In this document: in pieces, positions 39,410 to 48,158 of the stretch | Layout of the letters: each line of letters starts with the position of its first letter | Position numbering within the stretch: the first letter of the stretch is position 1 | Assembly: GCA_951813555.1 (NCBI GenBank) | Contig: OX638344.1 | Coordinates: 2,975,076-3,039,075, forward strand | Direction of reading: 5' to 3' | Length of the DNA stretch: 64,000 nucleotides | DNA from: an uncultured Acidimicrobiales bacterium | GTDB lineage: Bacteria > Actinomycetota > Acidimicrobiia > Acidimicrobiales > Bin134 | Notes under the pieces: generated by a model | The model's input: only the letters and a program-made list of their open reading frames with translations | Told to the model about the DNA's origin: nothing | Databases searched by the model: none | Program-made: the position numbers and the translations under genes

Positions 39410-40111
39410 TCAGCCGCCCTTTCTGTTACAGCGCTCCTCGGGGGTGAGGCCGGACAAAGCAATGACGGGGTTTGGCGGGCTGGAATCGGCGGTAAGGTCA
39501 GCGGAAGCAAATGGGGACCCAAAGCGGGTGACCACGGGCACCACCCCCGCCCACCATGGGCCGGCGATGTCCTGAGGCTCGTCGACGGGGTCGCCATTGC
39601 GGATCTTGGCCGACGCCTCGGTCAGCGGCACCTCCAGCACCAGGGTCTTGCGCAGGTCCGACGGGGACGGAGGTCGACCGCTGTCCCAGTTCTCAACCAC
39701 ATGGTCGGTCACCAGTTTGAGGGCATAGCCTTTGCGCTCATCTTCGTCGACACGCCGGGCTGTTCCCCTGATCAACGCCGAGCGGTAGTTCATCGAGTTG
39801 TGGAAGGGCGTTCGGGCCATCACCAACCCATCCAGACATGTGACGGTGACGCAAACCTCCTGGCCGGCACCGGTACCGAGTAGGTGGTTCGCCACCGCAC
39901 CGTGGAGAAAAAGGCATTCGCCGTCATGCCCGTAGGCCATGGGCAGCACCAGCGGCCCATCGGAAGTGGACACCCCCACATGGGCGATCAATCCAGCATC
40001 GAGAATGCTTAGTACGTCCTCCTTGGCATACCGTGCTCGGCCAGCCCCCCGACGCACCCTTACACGCTCCGACGGTGCCGCTGTTTGGCCATCTAGTCCC
40101 GGATCACCCAT
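39410..40111 (-). CDS. Pyridoxamine 5'-phosphate oxidase-like FMN-binding family protein
   Basis: 'ILDAGLIAHVGVSTSDGPLVLPMAYGHDGECLFLHGA' is typical of the split-barrel PNPOx-like family (by eye). It sits 21 nt upstream of mec. Confidence 0.6.
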   Translation of the reverse strand: MGDPGLDGQTAAPSERVRVRRGAGRARYAKEDVLSILDAGLIAHVGVSTSDGPLVLPMAYGHDGECLFLHGAVANHLLGTGAGQEVCVTVTCLDGLVMARTPFHNSMNYRSALIRGTARRVDEDERKGYALKLVTDHVVENWDSGRPPSPSDLRKTLVLEVPLTEASAKIRNGDPVDEPQDIAGPWWAGVVPVVTRFGSPFASADLTADSSPPNPVIALSGLTPEERCNRKGG

Positions 40112-40376
40112 GGCCTGCGAAACTATCGGGGTGCACCTGCTCTTCTCCGCCGAATTTCTATGCCGGGTGTCGTCCCCGGCCGAAGAGATGGAGGATCAGA
40201 GAACCCAACCCTCTTCTGGTCGGTGGCCTACCCTTGCATATGCCCTTTCTGACTGCAATGAGTCAATATGACATCAGATGCGAGTAGCGGAATCGCTATA
40301 TCGAGCTGCCGATTGGCACTTATGAAAAACACCCGGTGACACTCTTAGACCTGGACCGCACAGGACGGCGGACACA

Positions 40377-41000
40377 ATGCTGACTGTAGAAACGGACCAT
40401 GCTGTCGAAGCGATCCAACAAGTAACCAAAACTCCTGCTGTGTCGTTCTCGATTGAAGGGTCCAAGATGCTAGGTGCGTTTGAACTCCTCCCTGATGAGC
40501 ATGAGAGACGGCAACGAGTTGGTGTCGGCGCAATCACCTCGAAGGCCCTCCTACACGGCCTTTGGTTACTGCCCCTCGGGGGCTTCGTGCCGAGTGGAGC
40601 CTTACCCGACTTGAAAGTACAGCAACTTCGCGAGGCTCCATACTCGGCCATCGAAACCAATCTTGGCTTCTGGCGAACTTACGATCCACCAGGGATTCTG
40701 CGATCAGTTGCATTCAGCAGCAACAACGTCGCACAGGCCGTTCAACGAGCTGTCAAGTTCACACCGATCTTTCAGCGGTTCGTTCTAACCAATGAAACGT
40801 GTGGCCCTGTTCCCTGGCCAGTCGAATGCCTAGCGCGCGAGTGGGGTATTGGCATCATCACCTTAAGCGAGCATGCTGACCCTCAGGTTGTAGTTCCGGC
40901 CAGTCCTCCCGAAATCGGGGTCCCGAGTGTCTACCGGTGGTGGGTAGCCGAATTGGCTTACCAGCGCTTCCTTTACAAAAGAGCCCAGCTTGTCAGCTGA
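40377..41000 (+). CDS. Hypothetical protein, 207 aa, no recognisable motif
   Basis: ATG-started ORF within the low-GC islet. The amino-acid composition looks protein-like, unlike the antisense frame. It is convergent with 40973-41995 and overlaps it by 28 nt. Confidence 0.45.
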   Translation: MLTVETDHAVEAIQQVTKTPAVSFSIEGSKMLGAFELLPDEHERRQRVGVGAITSKALLHGLWLLPLGGFVPSGALPDLKVQQLREAPYSAIETNLGFWRTYDPPGILRSVAFSSNNVAQAVQRAVKFTPIFQRFVLTNETCGPVPWPVECLAREWGIGIITLSEHADPQVVVPASPPEIGVPSVYRWWVAELAYQRFLYKRAQLVS

Positions 41001-41995
41001 GCCTTAGGATTCTCTGGACCCTGAATCCCAGCGAGGCCATACGACGTGACGGCGTCTCGACAGGCGTTGCGAAATATAGCAATCCGGTCAGCAGGCTCTG
41101 CATTGAGGATGTAGTCCGCGAAGTCTGCGAGGGCGTTCATGTTGTGCCATCTCGCATCGAGATCTGGGTCCAGGAACCGACCGAGCGAAGCTCCATGACA
41201 GCAAGCGAGAGGACAGACTACGTTGCTTCCGGCTGCCGTCCAGCCTGCGATGTCGTCGACCAGGAACCAGTCGAGCAATGGCCGTACAAAGAGCCGTGGC
41301 GAAGACCCGGGGCGACGACGAGGGCGCATCACCGCTGTTGCAAAATGACGAGTAGTGGTAGTAAGGCCGATTGAAGCATGCTCTGCGCCGAACACAACCG
41401 ATCCAAATGCTCCATGGTCACTACGAAGTTGGAATAAAGAGTCAATCCTGGATGCGATGCGCTGCATACCCTCGACCGCGCCCCCCTCAGACAGTGGATC
41501 CGCCCGGTGAGCAAGAACGAGAGCTACAGGCTGGCCAGTGGATTGCAGAGCATCAACTACCAATTCCGTTCGCTTAGCCACCCACCTAACGTCGAGTGCA
41601 AGCAGAATCATCGCTTCCAGGTCCTCGGCGATGCGACCTTGTTCTCTAACAGTCTGCTTTAGGGCTGCATCCGAGTCTCTGTCCCAATGGATGAAGGCCC
41701 CTGGAAGCAGAAGGCGAGCCGCTCCAACAATGACCTGCTGTTGAATCCATTGCTCAGGCCCAGGGACATTCTCAACTGCATATCCAGTCCCATCGAAGAT
41801 GAATGGACCTTCTAGACCAGCATCACGCAGCCGCTTTGCCGTTTCTGGCCCTTTCGGACCCGCAATTGTGATTGCATCAGCAAGCTCGACTGCAGACCTG
41901 GCCAATTCAGGATTTGTTTTGCAGGCATGGGCGGTGAGGTAGAAGGAGAACGAAACGGGACGTCTATCTACCTTCCATTCAGCCCGTGCGGTCAT
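40973..41995 (-). CDS. Hypothetical protein, 340 aa, alternating beta/alpha pattern with a C-terminal Cys/His cluster. Translationally coupled to the HTH-peptidase gene.
   Basis: The ATG overlaps the upstream stop as ATGA (41992-41995). No TM segment. Cys/His cluster 'VVCPLACCHG...ARWHNMNAL'. I cannot place it in a family. Confidence 0.65.
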   Translation of the reverse strand: MTARAEWKVDRRPVSFSFYLTAHACKTNPELARSAVELADAITIAGPKGPETAKRLRDAGLEGPFIFDGTGYAVENVPGPEQWIQQQVIVGAARLLLPGAFIHWDRDSDAALKQTVREQGRIAEDLEAMILLALDVRWVAKRTELVVDALQSTGQPVALVLAHRADPLSEGGAVEGMQRIASRIDSLFQLRSDHGAFGSVVFGAEHASIGLTTTTRHFATAVMRPRRRPGSSPRLFVRPLLDWFLVDDIAGWTAAGSNVVCPLACCHGASLGRFLDPDLDARWHNMNALADFADYILNAEPADRIAIFRNACRDAVTSYGLAGIQGPENPKAQLTSWALL

Positions 41996-43083
41996 GAGAA
42001 AAGCCCTGCGTCATGAAGGTCGGGACGCACCTTAGGAAGCTGGTTGCGATGCAGGCTGAACCTCTTAGTTTCGTACTGGATATTTCCGATGACCACGCTC
42101 GGATGCACGTTGTACTGCGACGCTGCTTGAAGGATTGCTGGCACGGATGCCGACGTGAATTCGAAACCGCCTGGAAAGAGCCATTCAGTGGCCTGGTCGT
42201 TTGCCGCTATTTCATCTGGATCACTTTGAGGCCCCATGAGGTCGTCATCGAGGATCGCACCGGACTGCGCGGTGATATGGCCCAGTGTCAGGTGGGCACA
42301 TTCGTGAAGCAGCGCGAAGAGCAGACTGTCGAACCGGTTGTTTCGCGTGGTCAGCCCGATCACGGGCCGCCCATCCGTTAGAAAAGTCACCGCGCCGTCG
42401 AGCTTGCCCCCCCGTAGCCCCTCTGCAAACACCAGGGAGACACCACGCTCTCCGAGCAGAAGTGGCAGCTTGGACAGTTCACTGGGTCCATCCTTGAGGA
42501 TCCGGGGAAGGCTCTTTGCGAGGTGCCCCAGCCCATCAATATCGAACGCCGCGACGCCTTGGGTGTCCGCTACCTTCCGGATATACGCAAGCCAAGCAAC
42601 CTGCTCGATTGTTATTGGATCAGCAGAATTGGAGCGCTTCGCCGCCATAGCAAACTGAGGACTGTCATCCAGGTTGCTGATTTCCAGTAGATCGCACACG
42701 GCCGACTCAGTGGCATCAAGGTCATCGGTCTCAGGGATCCACCCCCGAGACCGCACCTGGGCCAGCGGAATCCTCTGGCGTAGTCGAGCTCGCCGAGCAA
42801 CAGGGGTGCGTTCATCTTGGCTTGTAACTGAGCGCTGTTCGTACAAGCGATATGCAGTCTGGAGGTTCAACCAAAGCTCAGGTGTGGTGCCGAGCGCCTC
42901 CGAGAAGGAAATCGCAGTCTCGGTGGTGATCTCCTTCTTTCCGTTCAGAATCTCGGAAACTGCCTGAATGGGCCGATCGATGATCTCTGCGAACTCAGTG
43001 ACAGTCCACTCGCGCTCGTCCAACTCATCACGGAGATACTCACCTGCCGGAAAAACCTCAGCAGGAGTGTAGGTTCTAGCCAT
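41992..43083 (-). CDS. HigA-family XRE helix-turn-helix antitoxin fused to an ImmA/IrrE (COG2856/DUF955-type) zinc metallopeptidase domain
   Basis: N-terminus 'PAGEYLRDELDEREWTVTEFAEIIDRPIQAVSEILNGKKEITTETAISFSEALGTTPELWLNLQ' matches the HigA/VapI antidote pattern. The C-terminal half has HExxH ('LLHECAHLTLGH'). GGGAGGAG lies upstream of the ATG. Confidence 0.75.
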   Translation of the reverse strand: MARTYTPAEVFPAGEYLRDELDEREWTVTEFAEIIDRPIQAVSEILNGKKEITTETAISFSEALGTTPELWLNLQTAYRLYEQRSVTSQDERTPVARRARLRQRIPLAQVRSRGWIPETDDLDATESAVCDLLEISNLDDSPQFAMAAKRSNSADPITIEQVAWLAYIRKVADTQGVAAFDIDGLGHLAKSLPRILKDGPSELSKLPLLLGERGVSLVFAEGLRGGKLDGAVTFLTDGRPVIGLTTRNNRFDSLLFALLHECAHLTLGHITAQSGAILDDDLMGPQSDPDEIAANDQATEWLFPGGFEFTSASVPAILQAASQYNVHPSVVIGNIQYETKRFSLHRNQLPKVRPDLHDAGLFS

Positions 43084-43100
43084 AGTGACGAATCTCCTCC

Positions 43101-43400
43101 CTAGTGGTAATCAACGACTTCGACGATGACCAGGAAGCGGCCTTCGGCATCGGTCTCAACCCGCAAGATGAGCCTCCACCGACGATTGAGCCGGATCGAA
43201 TGCTGGCCAGCACGCCCCCCTTGGAGCTTCTCAAAGTGCAGCGCCTTGTAGTTCCGAAGATCGACCTCGGACTCCGCCTGCGCGAGAAATCCCACCTTCT
43301 TCCGAAAGGCCTTCACAACATCCGAGCTGAGGCTGGGCAGCACGAAGTCGCGTTCCTCGTACAGTCGCCGCAGATTGTCGTCCTCGAATTCCAGCCTCAT
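43101..43400 (-). CDS. higB: HigB-like (RelE-superfamily, plasmid maintenance system killer) toxin
   Basis: 99 aa. 'AFRKKV..L......DL.....LHFEKLQGGRAGQHSIRLNRRWRLILRVE' matches the HigB-family pattern. It sits 17 nt upstream of the HigA-like gene, in toxin-first order as in higBA. Confidence 0.7.
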   Translation of the reverse strand: MRLEFEDDNLRRLYEERDFVLPSLSSDVVKAFRKKVGFLAQAESEVDLRNYKALHFEKLQGGRAGQHSIRLNRRWRLILRVETDAEGRFLVIVEVVDYH

Positions 43401-43410
43401 GCTTCATGCC

Positions 43411-43427
43411 TTCACCCTAGAGGTGAA
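43411..43427. promoter_or_regulatory. Inverted repeat immediately upstream of the higB-like start (candidate operator or SD-occluding hairpin)
   Basis: TTCACC-CTAGA-GGTGAA lies 10 nt upstream of the start codon and overlaps the likely Shine-Dalgarno sequence (GGTGAAGG on the coding strand). Confidence 0.3.
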
Positions 43428-43563
43428 AACCCTATCACGCAAGTACCATTTTCGGGTTCATCCCGTGACGAAGCCGAACCCAATGATGAACCAACCTATT
43501 CCCTCTGCTGGCAAGCTTGACGAATACAACGATCGCCGTGATCTTCGCACCCTCCCTGCACTG

Positions 43564-44067
43564 ATGGCTCGGCTGTTTTTGGCGGTATTTCCGCCGACTG
43601 ATGTCATAGATCGGCTAGGCGGGTTGGAGCGACCCGCGGTTGACGGGCTGCGGTGGACGGGGCGGGTGCAGTGGCACGTAACACTGAGGTTTCTGGGGGA
43701 GGCGGAGTCTGGAGAGGTGAAAAGCAGCTTGCGTGGGTTTCAGGGTTCGGCGTCAACGGTGCGGCTCGGACCAGCTAGCAGGCGGCTGGGGTCACGGGTA
43801 CTGGTGTTGCCGGCGGGTGGGCTGGGGCAGTTGGCGGCTGAAGTGCGGGCCCGGACCGAGGACATCGGACAGCCACCGGACCGACGAGGTTTCACCGGTC
43901 ACCTGACGCTGGCCCGAGCTCGCAAGCGGATACCGGCCACGGTTGTCGGGCTGCCATTCGAGGCTGAGTTCCAGGCCGCCGAGCTGTGGCTGGTGTCCAG
44001 CGAGCTGCACCCCGACGGAGCCCGCTACAACCGACTCAGCCAGTGGCCACTGACGGCAGGGATCTGA
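43564..44067 (+). CDS. thpR: RNA 2',3'-cyclic phosphodiesterase (2H phosphoesterase, ThpR/LigT family)
   Basis: ATG 43564 ('MARLFLAVFPP'). Two HxT/Sx motifs, 'HVTLRFLG' and 'HLTLAR'. About 167 aa. Confidence 0.8.
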   Translation: MARLFLAVFPPTDVIDRLGGLERPAVDGLRWTGRVQWHVTLRFLGEAESGEVKSSLRGFQGSASTVRLGPASRRLGSRVLVLPAGGLGQLAAEVRARTEDIGQPPDRRGFTGHLTLARARKRIPATVVGLPFEAEFQAAELWLVSSELHPDGARYNRLSQWPLTAGI

Positions 44068-44091
44068 GAGGAGTCTTGATCAAGACTCCTC
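44068..44091. terminator. Perfect 24-nt palindrome between convergent thpR and pcm (candidate bidirectional terminator hairpin)
   Basis: GAGGAGTCTTGATCAAGACTCCTC equals its own reverse complement. It starts 1 nt after the thpR stop and includes the last codons and stop of pcm. Confidence 0.45.
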
Positions 44092-44730
44092 GACGAGGGG
44101 GACGAATCTCACGGGACAGAACCGCTTGGAGGTGGTCTCCTCCCCCATTCGGGTTATAAGGGTCAGATTCTGGGACTGTGACGGCGACCCCAAGGGAATC
44201 ACCAGCCTTCCGCCGTCAGCCAGCTGGTCTACCAGCGCGGGCGGGATGCTGGATGCGGCCGCGGTCACCACCACTGCGTCATAGGGGGCGCCGGGTAGGT
44301 GGCCCTGTGAACCGTCGGCGCACACCACAGTGGTGTTGGCGTACTCCAGCTTGGACAGCACGCGGGCCGCGGCGTCGGCCAGCTTCCTGTGGCGCTCCAC
44401 CGAAACCACTGAGCTAGCCAGTTCGGCCAGCACGGCGGCCCCGTACCCTGAGCCGGTGCCCACTTCCAGCACCCGGTCGTCGGGGCCGATGGCTGCGGCC
44501 TCGGCCATGAGGGCCACTATGTAGGGCTGCGAGATGGTCTGGCCCGCGGGGATGGGCAACGGGTGGTCTTTGTAGGCGTCGCTGGCCAGTGATCGGGACA
44601 CGAAACGGTGGCGGGGAACCGTTCTCATGGCCTCCAGGACCCGCGGGTCGCAAACCCCCCGCCCCTCGATCTGGCGGCGCACCATGGCCAACCGCCGTTC
44701 TCGATGCCGGTCTTCCGCAGCCCCGGCCAT
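44080..44730 (-). CDS. pcm: Protein-L-isoaspartate O-methyltransferase
   Basis: 'TISQPYIVALM', 'VLEVGTGSGYGAAVLAEL' and 'LVDQLADGGRLVIP'. Confidence 0.9.
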   Translation of the reverse strand: MAGAAEDRHRERRLAMVRRQIEGRGVCDPRVLEAMRTVPRHRFVSRSLASDAYKDHPLPIPAGQTISQPYIVALMAEAAAIGPDDRVLEVGTGSGYGAAVLAELASSVVSVERHRKLADAAARVLSKLEYANTTVVCADGSQGHLPGAPYDAVVVTAAASSIPPALVDQLADGGRLVIPLGSPSQSQNLTLITRMGEETTSKRFCPVRFVPLVEES

Positions 44731-47480: not shown

Positions 47481-48158
47481 CTATTCGTACACGCCCCGGG
47501 ACTGGTCCCGGACGATCTGGCCCCGGTCCAGCTCCACAACCCGGCGGCGCATTTTGTCGACGATGCTCCGGTCATGGGTGGCCATGACCACCGTGGTACC
47601 GGTGCGGTTGATGCGGTCCAGCAGGGTCATGATGCCCAGCGAGGTATTGGGATCGAGGTTCCCGGTGGGCTCATCGGCCAACAGAATCAGCGGCCGGTTC
47701 ACGAAGGCCCGGGCGATGGACACCCGCTGCTGCTCTCCGCCCGACAGCTCGTCGGGATAGTTGTGCATCTTCTTGGACAGCCCCACCAGCTCCAAAATGG
47801 CCGGCACCTTGGACTTGATCACACTGCGGGGGCGGCCGATCACCTCTAGGGCGAAGGCCACGTTTTGGACCACGGTCTTGTTGGGCAGCAACTTGAAGTC
47901 TTGGAAGACGCAGCCGATGTTGCGCCGCAAAAAAGGCACCTTCCAACTCGGCAGCTCGCCGATGTCCCGACCGGCTACGAACACCCGGCCCCGATCGGGC
48001 CTCTCCTCTTTGTTCAGAAGGCGCATGAACGTGGACTTGCCCGAACCCGATGGACCCACCAAAAAGACAAACTCCCCCCGCTGCACATCGCAGGTGGCGT
48101 TCTGAAGGGCGAGCACCTCGCCCTTGTACACCTTGGTGACGTTCTCCATTCTGATCAT
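47481..48158 (-). CDS. ftsE: Cell-division ATP-binding protein FtsE
   Basis: '[11 protein letters not shown]', Walker A 'GPSGSGKST', the signature 'LSGGEQQRV' and Walker B '[12 protein letters not shown]'. Confidence 0.9.

Follow-up and report, generated by a model that had tools for sequence, protein, structure and literature searches.

What kind of element is formed by four genes of low G+C content (GC) that lie between housekeeping genes in an uncultured Acidimicrobiales bacterium? The genes belong to a stretch of 64,000 nucleotides (nt) of contig OX638344.1 (assembly GCA_951813555.1), which was analysed as a whole and is called the window below, all positions being counted from its first nucleotide. 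An original prediction, made without database searches, had described here a lower-GC islet with a minus-strand operon of three genes, encoding a HigB-like toxin, a helix-turn-helix (HTH) domain fused to a metallopeptidase and a protein of 340 amino acids (aa), next to an orphan open reading frame (ORF) of 207 aa. All four ORFs were recovered where they had been placed, with the 17-nt gap between higB and the peptidase gene, the ATGA start/stop overlap between the peptidase gene and the third gene, and the convergent orientation of the 207-aa ORF, whose 3' end overlaps that of the third gene by 28 nt (40973-41000). The 340-aa and 207-aa proteins are designated P340 and O207, and the whole unit the cassette:

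43101-43400, minus strand: HigB-like toxin, 99 aa
41992-43083, minus strand: HTH-peptidase, 363 aa
40973-41995, minus strand: P340, 340 aa
40377-41000, plus strand: O207, 207 aa
40159-43563: whole inserted cassette, ~3.4 kb, 56.3% GC, delimited by the empty sites of three related genomes (L038-L040) and by the lowest-GC window

Our analysis favours, with a probability of roughly 55%, a composite conflict system, serving defence or addiction, which would resemble PD-lambda-2 and in which the third component would have been replaced by a P340/O207 module. Much less confidence attaches to any specific role of P340 or O207. In the data, this reading is based on the homology of the first two genes, their catalytic motifs, the conservation of an operator-like site, the synteny of the four genes, the insertion itself, the defence-island contexts of other copies and an allele swap at P340.

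PD-lambda-2 was obtained by functional selection in E. coli and acts by abortive infection. Its component A is HigB-like, B carries a HigA-type HTH and a peptidase, and C is "related to a P4 phage antitoxin"; B by itself is toxic, an effect neutralised by A, while C is needed for defence against lambda-vir and not for neutralisation (PMC9519451). No mechanistic follow-up of this system was found in the literature searched. As in the system of E. coli ECOR42 (Vassallo et al. 2022), a HigB-like gene, an Xre-HTH + ImmA/IrrE gene and a third gene of about 350 aa form one operon in the cassette, which is likewise probably an abortive-infection or toxin-antitoxin (TA)-like system. The cassette differs from that system in its host, of the high-GC Acidimicrobiia type and not E. 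coli, and in its fourth, convergent gene, O207, a kind of gene not described for PD-lambda-2. Fusions of Xre and COG2856 domains accompanied by RelE or PIN toxins had been predicted as "three-component" systems, with a LexA-like protease/repressor logic, as early as 2009 (PMC2701414). The architecture had been considered unusual in the original prediction; it is indeed more than a plain type II TA pair, but its layout was already known from these two studies.

The identity of the two front genes, proposed from their motifs, was borne out by profile searches. HigB matched Pfam PF05015 (HigB-like_toxin) at 3.7e-12 and has a RelE fold. It ends with D97-Y98-H99, which correspond to Asp90-Tyr91-His92 of Proteus HigB, residues critical for mRNA cleavage (PMC5027501), and D-Y-H is kept in 10 of 11 loci. 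The second protein is an N-terminal HigA/Xre HTH fused to an ImmA/IrrE (M78) metallopeptidase: its residues ~13-82 matched TIGR02607 at 3e-15 (55.7 bits for a cut-off of 47.7) and PF01381 at 3e-7, and residues 41-349 matched the PADLOC model PD-Lambda-2_B (PDLC03982) at 1e-33. The peptidase motif reads H260-E-C-A-H264, with HExxH invariant in 11/11 loci. Matches to the RmrA models of PADLOC were weak (1.4e-5 to 1e-3). HigB + HTH-peptidase pairs are frequent on plasmids (83 records), where the genes that follow them are unrelated or absent; the window HigB shares 48% identity with its counterpart in one such pair, from Paraburkholderia. Module 1 can thus be assigned, on homology, to the PD-lambda-2 A/B-type toxin-regulator pairs, an architecture that is already known. 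With classical HigBA it shares the toxin-first order, the RelE-fold HigB with its D-Y-H, the HigA-type HTH and a palindrome at the promoter/ribosome-binding site. It differs from HigBA in that the HTH forms only the N-terminal 80 residues of a 363-aa protein with a metallopeptidase extension of 280 residues, instead of a HigA of about 100 aa, and in that the operon runs on into P340. PD-lambda-2 itself departs from HigBA, the "antitoxin" being the toxic partner.

Upstream of higB, two elements were delimited in alignment A3:

43411-43427: perfect palindrome TTCACC-N5-GGTGAA, 10-26 nt upstream of the higB ATG, overlapping its ribosome-binding site
43428-43563, minus strand: leader/promoter region preceding higB and reaching the junction on the thpR side

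All 11 aligned loci have the palindrome unchanged although their flanks diverge, its only perfect copy in the 64-kb window is the one listed, and it is probably the operator of the HTH domain. When up to 2 mismatches were allowed, 14 sites were counted in the window for 2.2 expected, one of which (47839-47855, ATCACCTCTAGGGCGAA) has the same TCTAGGG centre as the perfect palindrome; this excess may reflect codon composition rather than extra operators. The leader region is conserved among the closest-clade cassettes, including those in other genomic contexts, and the spurious "thpR" tblastn matches of L001 and L003 fall within it.

The 207-aa ORF did not prove to be an orphan. In 18 loci with a relative of P340, all four genes were present as far as the contigs extend, in unchanged order and with the same spacing and convergent overlap, so that the HigB / HTH-peptidase / P340 trio, whose co-occurrence in other genomes had been proposed as a check, is neighbouring elsewhere as well. 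These loci come mostly from metagenome-assembled genomes (MAGs) of Acidimicrobiia, with one Burkholderiales, one Planctomycetota and one Actinomycetes MAG, and most of them lie in a genomic context unrelated to that of the window. O207 accompanies the other three genes in every close locus and is the partner of P340 in distant ones. The unit therefore consists of four genes in two modules, higB + HTH-peptidase and P340 + O207, and not of a tripartite operon with a bystander. Some copies are decaying: in L012 (6001-6834) only P340 residues 5-216 and a 66-aa O207 remnant are left, and in L010 (6001-7017) a stop codon interrupts the extracted P340 frame. L007 has, about 2 kb upstream of its complete cassette, an additional but incomplete HTH-peptidase gene (2348-2647) with 70% identity over the first 100 residues.

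According to the original prediction, its reading would be refuted if the 340-aa and 207-aa proteins matched well-characterised housekeeping families; neither P340 nor O207 matched any family of Pfam, NCBIfam, PADLOC or PHROGs. The same holds for the 46 diverse P340-family members that were searched, none of which matched a Pfam family or was assigned to a PADLOC or NCBIfam family. The family is large nonetheless: at least 153 close homologs were found, and an exhaustive profile search recovered 595 clusters at 50% identity (E <= 1e-3), 423 of them at E <= 1e-10. The AlphaFold model of P340 (predicted local distance difference test (pLDDT) 83, predicted template modelling score (pTM) 0.83) is a (beta/alpha)8, or TIM, barrel. 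Residues conserved throughout the family are D68, Q87, D166-P167, R191, D193 and R216-H217, and conserved D68, D135/R137, D166-P167, R191-x-D193-H194 and R216-H217 stand at or just after the C-terminal ends of strands, the usual active-site face of TIM barrels. A Cys/His cluster follows the barrel, which reads C261-x3-C265-C266...H284 (Cys3His) in the window and CxCxxC...H in the family consensus. From the model, P340 is predicted to be the founder of a large uncatalogued TIM-barrel family with a Cys3His cluster, and it is probably a Zn-containing enzyme acting on a nucleotide, a nucleic acid or a sugar-phosphate.

Several identities were considered for P340 and rejected. No match to the PADLOC PD-Lambda-2_C model was obtained at E<=1, either for P340 or for the 46 family members, so that this model-based test reveals no relationship between the third gene and PD-lambda-2C. 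As the whole ECOR42 system takes up 2,625 bp, its C component is similar in size to P340 (about 350-370 aa); in the look-up of PD-lambda-2, the E. coli and Klebsiella plasmid matches were plain HigA. Likewise, no RmrT model of PADLOC matched P340 or any of the 46 members. A TGT/DpdA enzyme (Pfam PF01702, NF041059) was suggested by the succession of a TIM barrel and a CxCxxC...H metal cluster in the family consensus, but hhalign gave a probability of only 0.2-0.8% against E. coli Tgt, TGT was not preferred by Foldseek (PDB, BFVD), and the window protein has C-x3-CC instead of CxCxxC. One of the 46 members matched DpdA models weakly (E 0.004 in PADLOC, 0.17 in NCBIfam), and this identity stays an unconfirmed lead. 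The unknown proteins encoded near some of the loci (336 aa in L020, 330 aa in L032, DUF5131 in L034) are all unrelated to P340.

The closest structural neighbours of P340 are phosphate-binding metabolic TIM barrels (OMP decarboxylase, IGPS, tagatose-bisphosphate aldolase and ribulose-phosphate epimerase), as would be expected if the cassette were a metabolic islet in which P340 is an ordinary enzyme, O207 an accessory protein and the regulator of Xre type. These matches were however generic (template modelling score (TM) <= 0.43, 9-16% identity), no metabolic gene neighbourhood was seen, and toxin or peptidase regulators are constantly associated. The distribution is also patchy and mobile, on plasmids, as cargo of Tn7-like TniQ elements and in integrase-flanked elements, with empty sites in close relatives. 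We regard a metabolic islet as very improbable.

For O207, at least 101 homologs were found, the most distant at 35% identity. Its invariant residues include E41-x2-R44-R45, K80, R100, Y102, R134, Y186-R-W-W and E192, and its structure model is very confident (pLDDT 91). Residues 78-139 follow the alpha-beta-beta-beta-alpha-beta order of a PD-(D/E)xK core. The strand order is thus compatible with a PD-(D/E)xK nuclease, but E41 and E192 are the only invariant acidic residues, no invariant D...(D/E)xK is present and no fold match was obtained, and this candidate was set aside. A true O207 homolog (hhalign 98.5%) occurs without P340 on a plasmid of Streptomyces sp. NBC_00989 (L034, 2244-5420), in a co-directional operon that encodes a DNA methyltransferase, a DUF4326 protein, the O207-like protein and a DUF5131 (Gp37/Gp68) protein, the last matching the PADLOC candidate systems PDC-M30B/M41B at 7e-56.

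To follow the pair beyond the close loci, distant P340-family genes (21-30% identity; homology by hhalign 98.4%) were examined on plasmids and metagenomic contigs. In eight of nine distinct architectures (L021, L024, L026-L031), the P340-like gene is convergent with a gene of 187-218 aa, the 3' ends overlapping by 4-46 nt or standing within about 30 nt of each other. These partners and O207 form one family (profile-profile probability 98.2%, E 3e-14; 97.4% for L026 alone). The genes that accompany the pair differ from locus to locus. An RmrA-type HTH-M78 protein is encoded upstream of P340 on the Arthrobacter plasmid L021 (3e-47) and in L027 (8e-56), where a 237-aa unknown gene precedes it; L028 has a split, divergently arranged HTH + M78 pair that is CapP/CapH-like (6e-10); and in L026, L030, L031 and L024, which lack a peptidase, a small CapH-like Xre gene (2e-7 in L026) or an AbrB/MazE-like gene lies immediately upstream of the O207-like gene and overlaps it. 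L032 and L033 have a divergent HigB-like + PD-Lambda-2_B-type pair, without an O207 partner and followed by an integrase; in L032 (5248-6812) the P340-family gene is beside a phage-type integrase and an excisionase-like HTH_17. On the Tsukamurella plasmid L024 (931-5968), the P340 module directly follows a Tn7-like TniQ/AAA-ATPase pair and is beside mer/ars resistance genes. The P340/O207 pair is hence combined with at least four types of regulator known from defence systems. By homology, P340 and O207 appear to constitute an undescribed, widespread two-gene unit standing in place of PD-lambda-2C.

A wider interpretation can be drawn from these loci, namely that P340 and O207 would be the core of a new, widespread family of conflict systems, whose balance would be set by 3'-overlapping convergent transcription and which would be served by at least four exchangeable sensing regulators, of the HigB/HTH-M78 PD-lambda-2 type, the RmrA type, the CapH/CapP type and the AbrB/MazE type. 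In its strongest form, P340 would be a new nucleic-acid- or nucleotide-modifying activity for immunity. We hold this interpretation as tentative.

The RmrA-type neighbours point to another arrangement, in which P340 would be a further toxin ("RmrT") neutralised by the HTH-ImmA hub, with HigB as a second toxin and O207 as an accessory or second antidote. In RosmerTA (RmrT/RmrA; Millman et al. 2022; NetFlax node D25), an HTH + M78 (ImmA) hub likewise stands beside variable toxins, and proteins of this ImmA-type protease-HTH kind act as promiscuous antitoxins or regulators for numerous unrelated toxins, whose genes may come before or after theirs (PMC10440598). Distant P340/O207 modules are joined to bona fide RmrA-type proteins in L021 and L027, where the P340-like gene directly follows, and an allele swap described below joins the C-terminus of the peptidase with P340, as for a cognate interacting pair. 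Against this, the window peptidase resembles RmrA only weakly, four genes are present and not two, and the RmrT models found neither P340 and its family nor O207 and HigB. Moreover, P340-family genes occur without a peptidase in L024, L026 and L029-L031, yet nearly always with O207, and therefore O207, and not the peptidase, is the constant partner. A RosmerTA-type module is in our opinion unlikely.

The loci without a peptidase evoke instead a restriction-modification (R-M)-like logic, in which P340 would be a protective modifier of nucleic acids (e.g. a divergent TGT/DpdA), O207 would harm unmodified targets and the HTH would be a delaying controller (C). Convergent type II R-M systems with the C protein upstream of the restriction enzyme, such as Esp1396I, are known. 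In L026, L030, L031 and L024, an enzyme gene is convergent with a gene of about 200 aa that is preceded by a small HTH gene with a 4-nt overlap, and the HTH of the L027 regulator matches the PADLOC "Control_protein" model at 9.5e-6. The metal cluster after the TIM barrel, the weak DpdA match in two libraries, the O207 homolog in a DNA-methyltransferase operon and the strand order of O207 would fit the same logic. On the other side are the results with Tgt given above, Foldseek ranking TGT/DpdA no higher than generic TIM barrels, and the lack in O207 of an invariant D...(D/E)xK and of a significant PDB match; the cassette has no methyltransferase or restriction endonuclease family match and no PD-(D/E)xK motif, and in the window the regulator lies on the enzyme side and not on the O207 side. 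This possibility is doubtful, to about the same degree as the RosmerTA-type module.

The M78 peptidase and Xre-HTH repressor of the cassette also recall ImmR/ImmA of ICEBs1, IrrE/DdrO of Deinococcus and CapH/CapP of CBASS, in which damage or infection activates cleavage of the repressor and thereby expression of a mobile-element or defence operon. The distant P340/O207 loci have either split CapH/CapP-like pairs or small CapH-like HTHs. The cassette departs from these systems in the fusion of HTH and peptidase, in the toxin gene ahead of them and in the nature of P340 and O207, which belong neither to CBASS nor to the integrase or repair genes.

The cassette was then compared with its chromosomal surroundings. 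In three related genomes (L038, L039, L040), the order ADH-pcm-thpR / PNPOx-mec (JAB)-cysM (PALP)-rph-rdgB is the same as in the window, and the cassette is absent, the ATG codons of thpR and PNPOx being separated by about 20 nt. These empty sites, with thpR and PNPOx so close together, demonstrate a true insertion of about 3.4 kb (~40159-43563) between the two housekeeping genes. Homology to the empty sites (blastn, L038-L040 against the window) ends at 43563/43564, at the thpR ATG (43564-43566), and restarts at 40158, and the islet boundaries first proposed, 40112-43563, were essentially exact. One further feature was found at the PNPOx-side junction:

40130-40158: degenerate copy of the thpR 5' end (19/29 nt match; blastn, L038-L040 against the window)

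Both junctions align with one and the same ~29-nt segment of the empty site, so that an imperfect direct repeat (40130-40158 / 43563-43591) flanks the insertion. Apart from this degenerate 29-nt duplication, no perfect flanking repeats or insertion sequence (IS) ends were found around the cassette. As had been remarked before, no integrase or transposase is present among the ORFs of the insertion; the cassette is without its own recombinase.

Base composition agrees with an origin elsewhere. The cassette has 56.3% GC against 65.4% for the whole window, which makes it the minimum of 606 sliding 3.4-kb windows (mean 65.3%, standard deviation 2.2). In 400-nt windows, GC was 54-60% inside and 62-70% outside, and GC at third codon positions (GC3) was 0.76 for higB and 0.52-0.62 for the other three genes, compared with 0.72-0.84 in the flanking genes. 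The compositional break reported in the original prediction is thus real in both GC and GC3, but milder than estimated, its figure of 45-52% being about 8 points too low. We conclude that the cassette was horizontally acquired. The thpR/PNPOx-mec neighbourhood is itself variable among relatives and may be an insertion hotspot: in L005 (7619-12186), additional DNA is found between O207 and PNPOx and also between PNPOx and mec; in L004 (1-4354), thpR is missing and PNPOx truncated; and the cassette-empty L038 (7623-9287) has a 554-aa unknown gene between PNPOx and mec.

Stabilisation of mobile DNA is a common role of TA pairs. A cassette lacking a recombinase and lying here between housekeeping genes, with HigB and the HTH part as its best conserved portions, could accordingly be an addiction module only, in which higB and the HTH-peptidase would stabilise the islet and P340 and O207 would be unrelated cargo without a defence role. 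This is at variance with the strict synteny of the four genes over phyla and contexts, with the recurrence of P340/O207 beside three other regulator types and no HigB, with the ATGA overlap of the peptidase gene and P340, and with the defence-island placement of copies in other genomes. We consider pure addiction improbable, somewhat more so than either the RosmerTA-type or the R-M-like arrangement.

Such placement was seen at three loci. The cassette of L035 has as neighbours HsdM, three IS transposases, an AAA_15/AAA_21 ATPase, an HsdR-like helicase and a Schlafen/AlbA_2 protein; that of L036, ArdA and a complete type I R-M system; and that of L037, an AAA_15/SMC_N ATPase, a ResIII helicase, a DprA-LDcluster4 protein and a second HTH-M78 gene. 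With copies standing among type I R-M genes, ArdA, ATPases and IS elements, "small defence islet", the term of the original prediction, is a fair description.

Evolutionary rates differ within the cassette. Over 11 loci, conservation decreased in the order HigB > HTH part > peptidase part > O207 ~ P340, P340 being the fastest-evolving gene. In the comparison with the closest relative, L002 (window 40950-42350 against L002 6001-7650 for the mosaic), higB and the first ~260 codons of the peptidase gene were 98-100% identical at the DNA level, the C-terminus of the peptidase and all of P340 only 65-81%, and O207 91-97%, while the housekeeping flanks, at 79-93%, fell below both higB/the peptidase 5' part and O207. 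This mosaic is a recombinational allele replacement, which couples P340 with the catalytic half of the peptidase and not with O207. Fast evolution of P340 together with the allele swap is a signature of an arms race and was counted in favour of a conflict role.

The non-coding features on the O207 side of the cassette were as follows (alignment A4, 10 loci, for the first two):

40227-40244, plus strand: conserved block CCTACCCT(T/G)G..(T/A)ATGCC near the O207-side end of the cassette
40311-40346, plus strand: promoter-like block GATTGGCAC ... GGTGACACTCT upstream of O207
40982-41003, minus strand: terminator-like hairpin, 9-bp stem then CTTTTGTAAA, within the P340/O207 3' overlap

The block at 40227-40244 is common to cassettes in unrelated genomic contexts and is probably the end of the mobile unit. 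The second block is the putative O207 promoter, a G-rich ribosome-binding site lying between it and the O207 ATG (40377). Terminator-like sites were no commoner in the region than by chance, only the position of the hairpin deserving mention, and no Rfam match to a structured RNA was obtained within 39500-44200.

Several results weigh against a PD-lambda-2-like conflict system with a P340/O207 module. The window HigB was not matched by the PADLOC PD-Lambda-2_A model, and only the B component ties the cassette to PD-lambda-2. The A model also missed the HigB of a Paraburkholderia locus that lies beside a strong B component (1.6e-45) and is therefore narrow. In the window, the cassette is flanked by housekeeping genes and is not in a defence island. 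No copy of the operator was found upstream of O207, so that it may not be co-regulated, and no promoter, that at 40311-40346 included, passed a scan for the sigma-70 consensus. The roles of P340 and O207 are drawn from their neighbours only: both are outside the four family libraries cited above, P340 had no match among PDB sequences either, and the best PDB match of the O207 model was not significant (E 0.16). The two partners are sometimes found singly, P340-like genes without O207 in L032/L033 and an O207-like gene without P340 in L034. Finally, no relative of P340 was found in IMG/VR viral contigs, a result which, with PHROGs matches for genes 1 and 2 (HigB and HTH-peptidase) only, also led us to reject a phage origin of the cassette.

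If the cassette is nevertheless a PD-lambda-2-like conflict system, the following course of events can be proposed, in which the functional steps, the trigger, the substrate and the sensor or effector roles are inferred. At rest, the HTH bound to the operator over the higB ribosome-binding site would keep the higB-peptidase-P340 operon low, HigB, as a ribosome-dependent mRNA endonuclease, and the HTH-peptidase would hold each other inactive, and O207 would be made from its own promoter on the opposite strand. Phage infection or DNA damage would activate the M78 peptidase, as in ImmA, IrrE and CapP; cleavage of the HTH part, in cis or in trans, would derepress the operon and free HigB, leading to translation arrest. 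P340 would then rise, and read-through across the 28-nt 3' overlap into O207 would shift the P340:O207 ratio. P340 and O207 may supply specificity or an effector function, as PD-lambda-2C does in E. coli.

The idea of a HigB / HTH-peptidase / third-gene system is already known (PMC9519451, PMC2701414). New are a large TIM-barrel/Zn family outside the tested libraries, O207 as its constant 3'-overlapping partner with an unmatched fold, the joining of this pair to at least four regulator types, and a mapped insertion with empty sites and an allele-swap boundary. Taken together, these results suggest that HigB and the HTH-peptidase form a regulator-toxin front end that is portable and can drive entirely different back ends. 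One of these back ends is exposed here, a TIM-barrel/Zn protein with a novel-fold partner, which is common in metagenomes and MAGs and absent from the tested family libraries. Should the pair serve as an effector or a sensor, it would represent a new class of enzymes in bacterial immunity, and the regulator swaps would offer a natural series in which to study how infection is sensed by ImmA/IrrE-type proteases.

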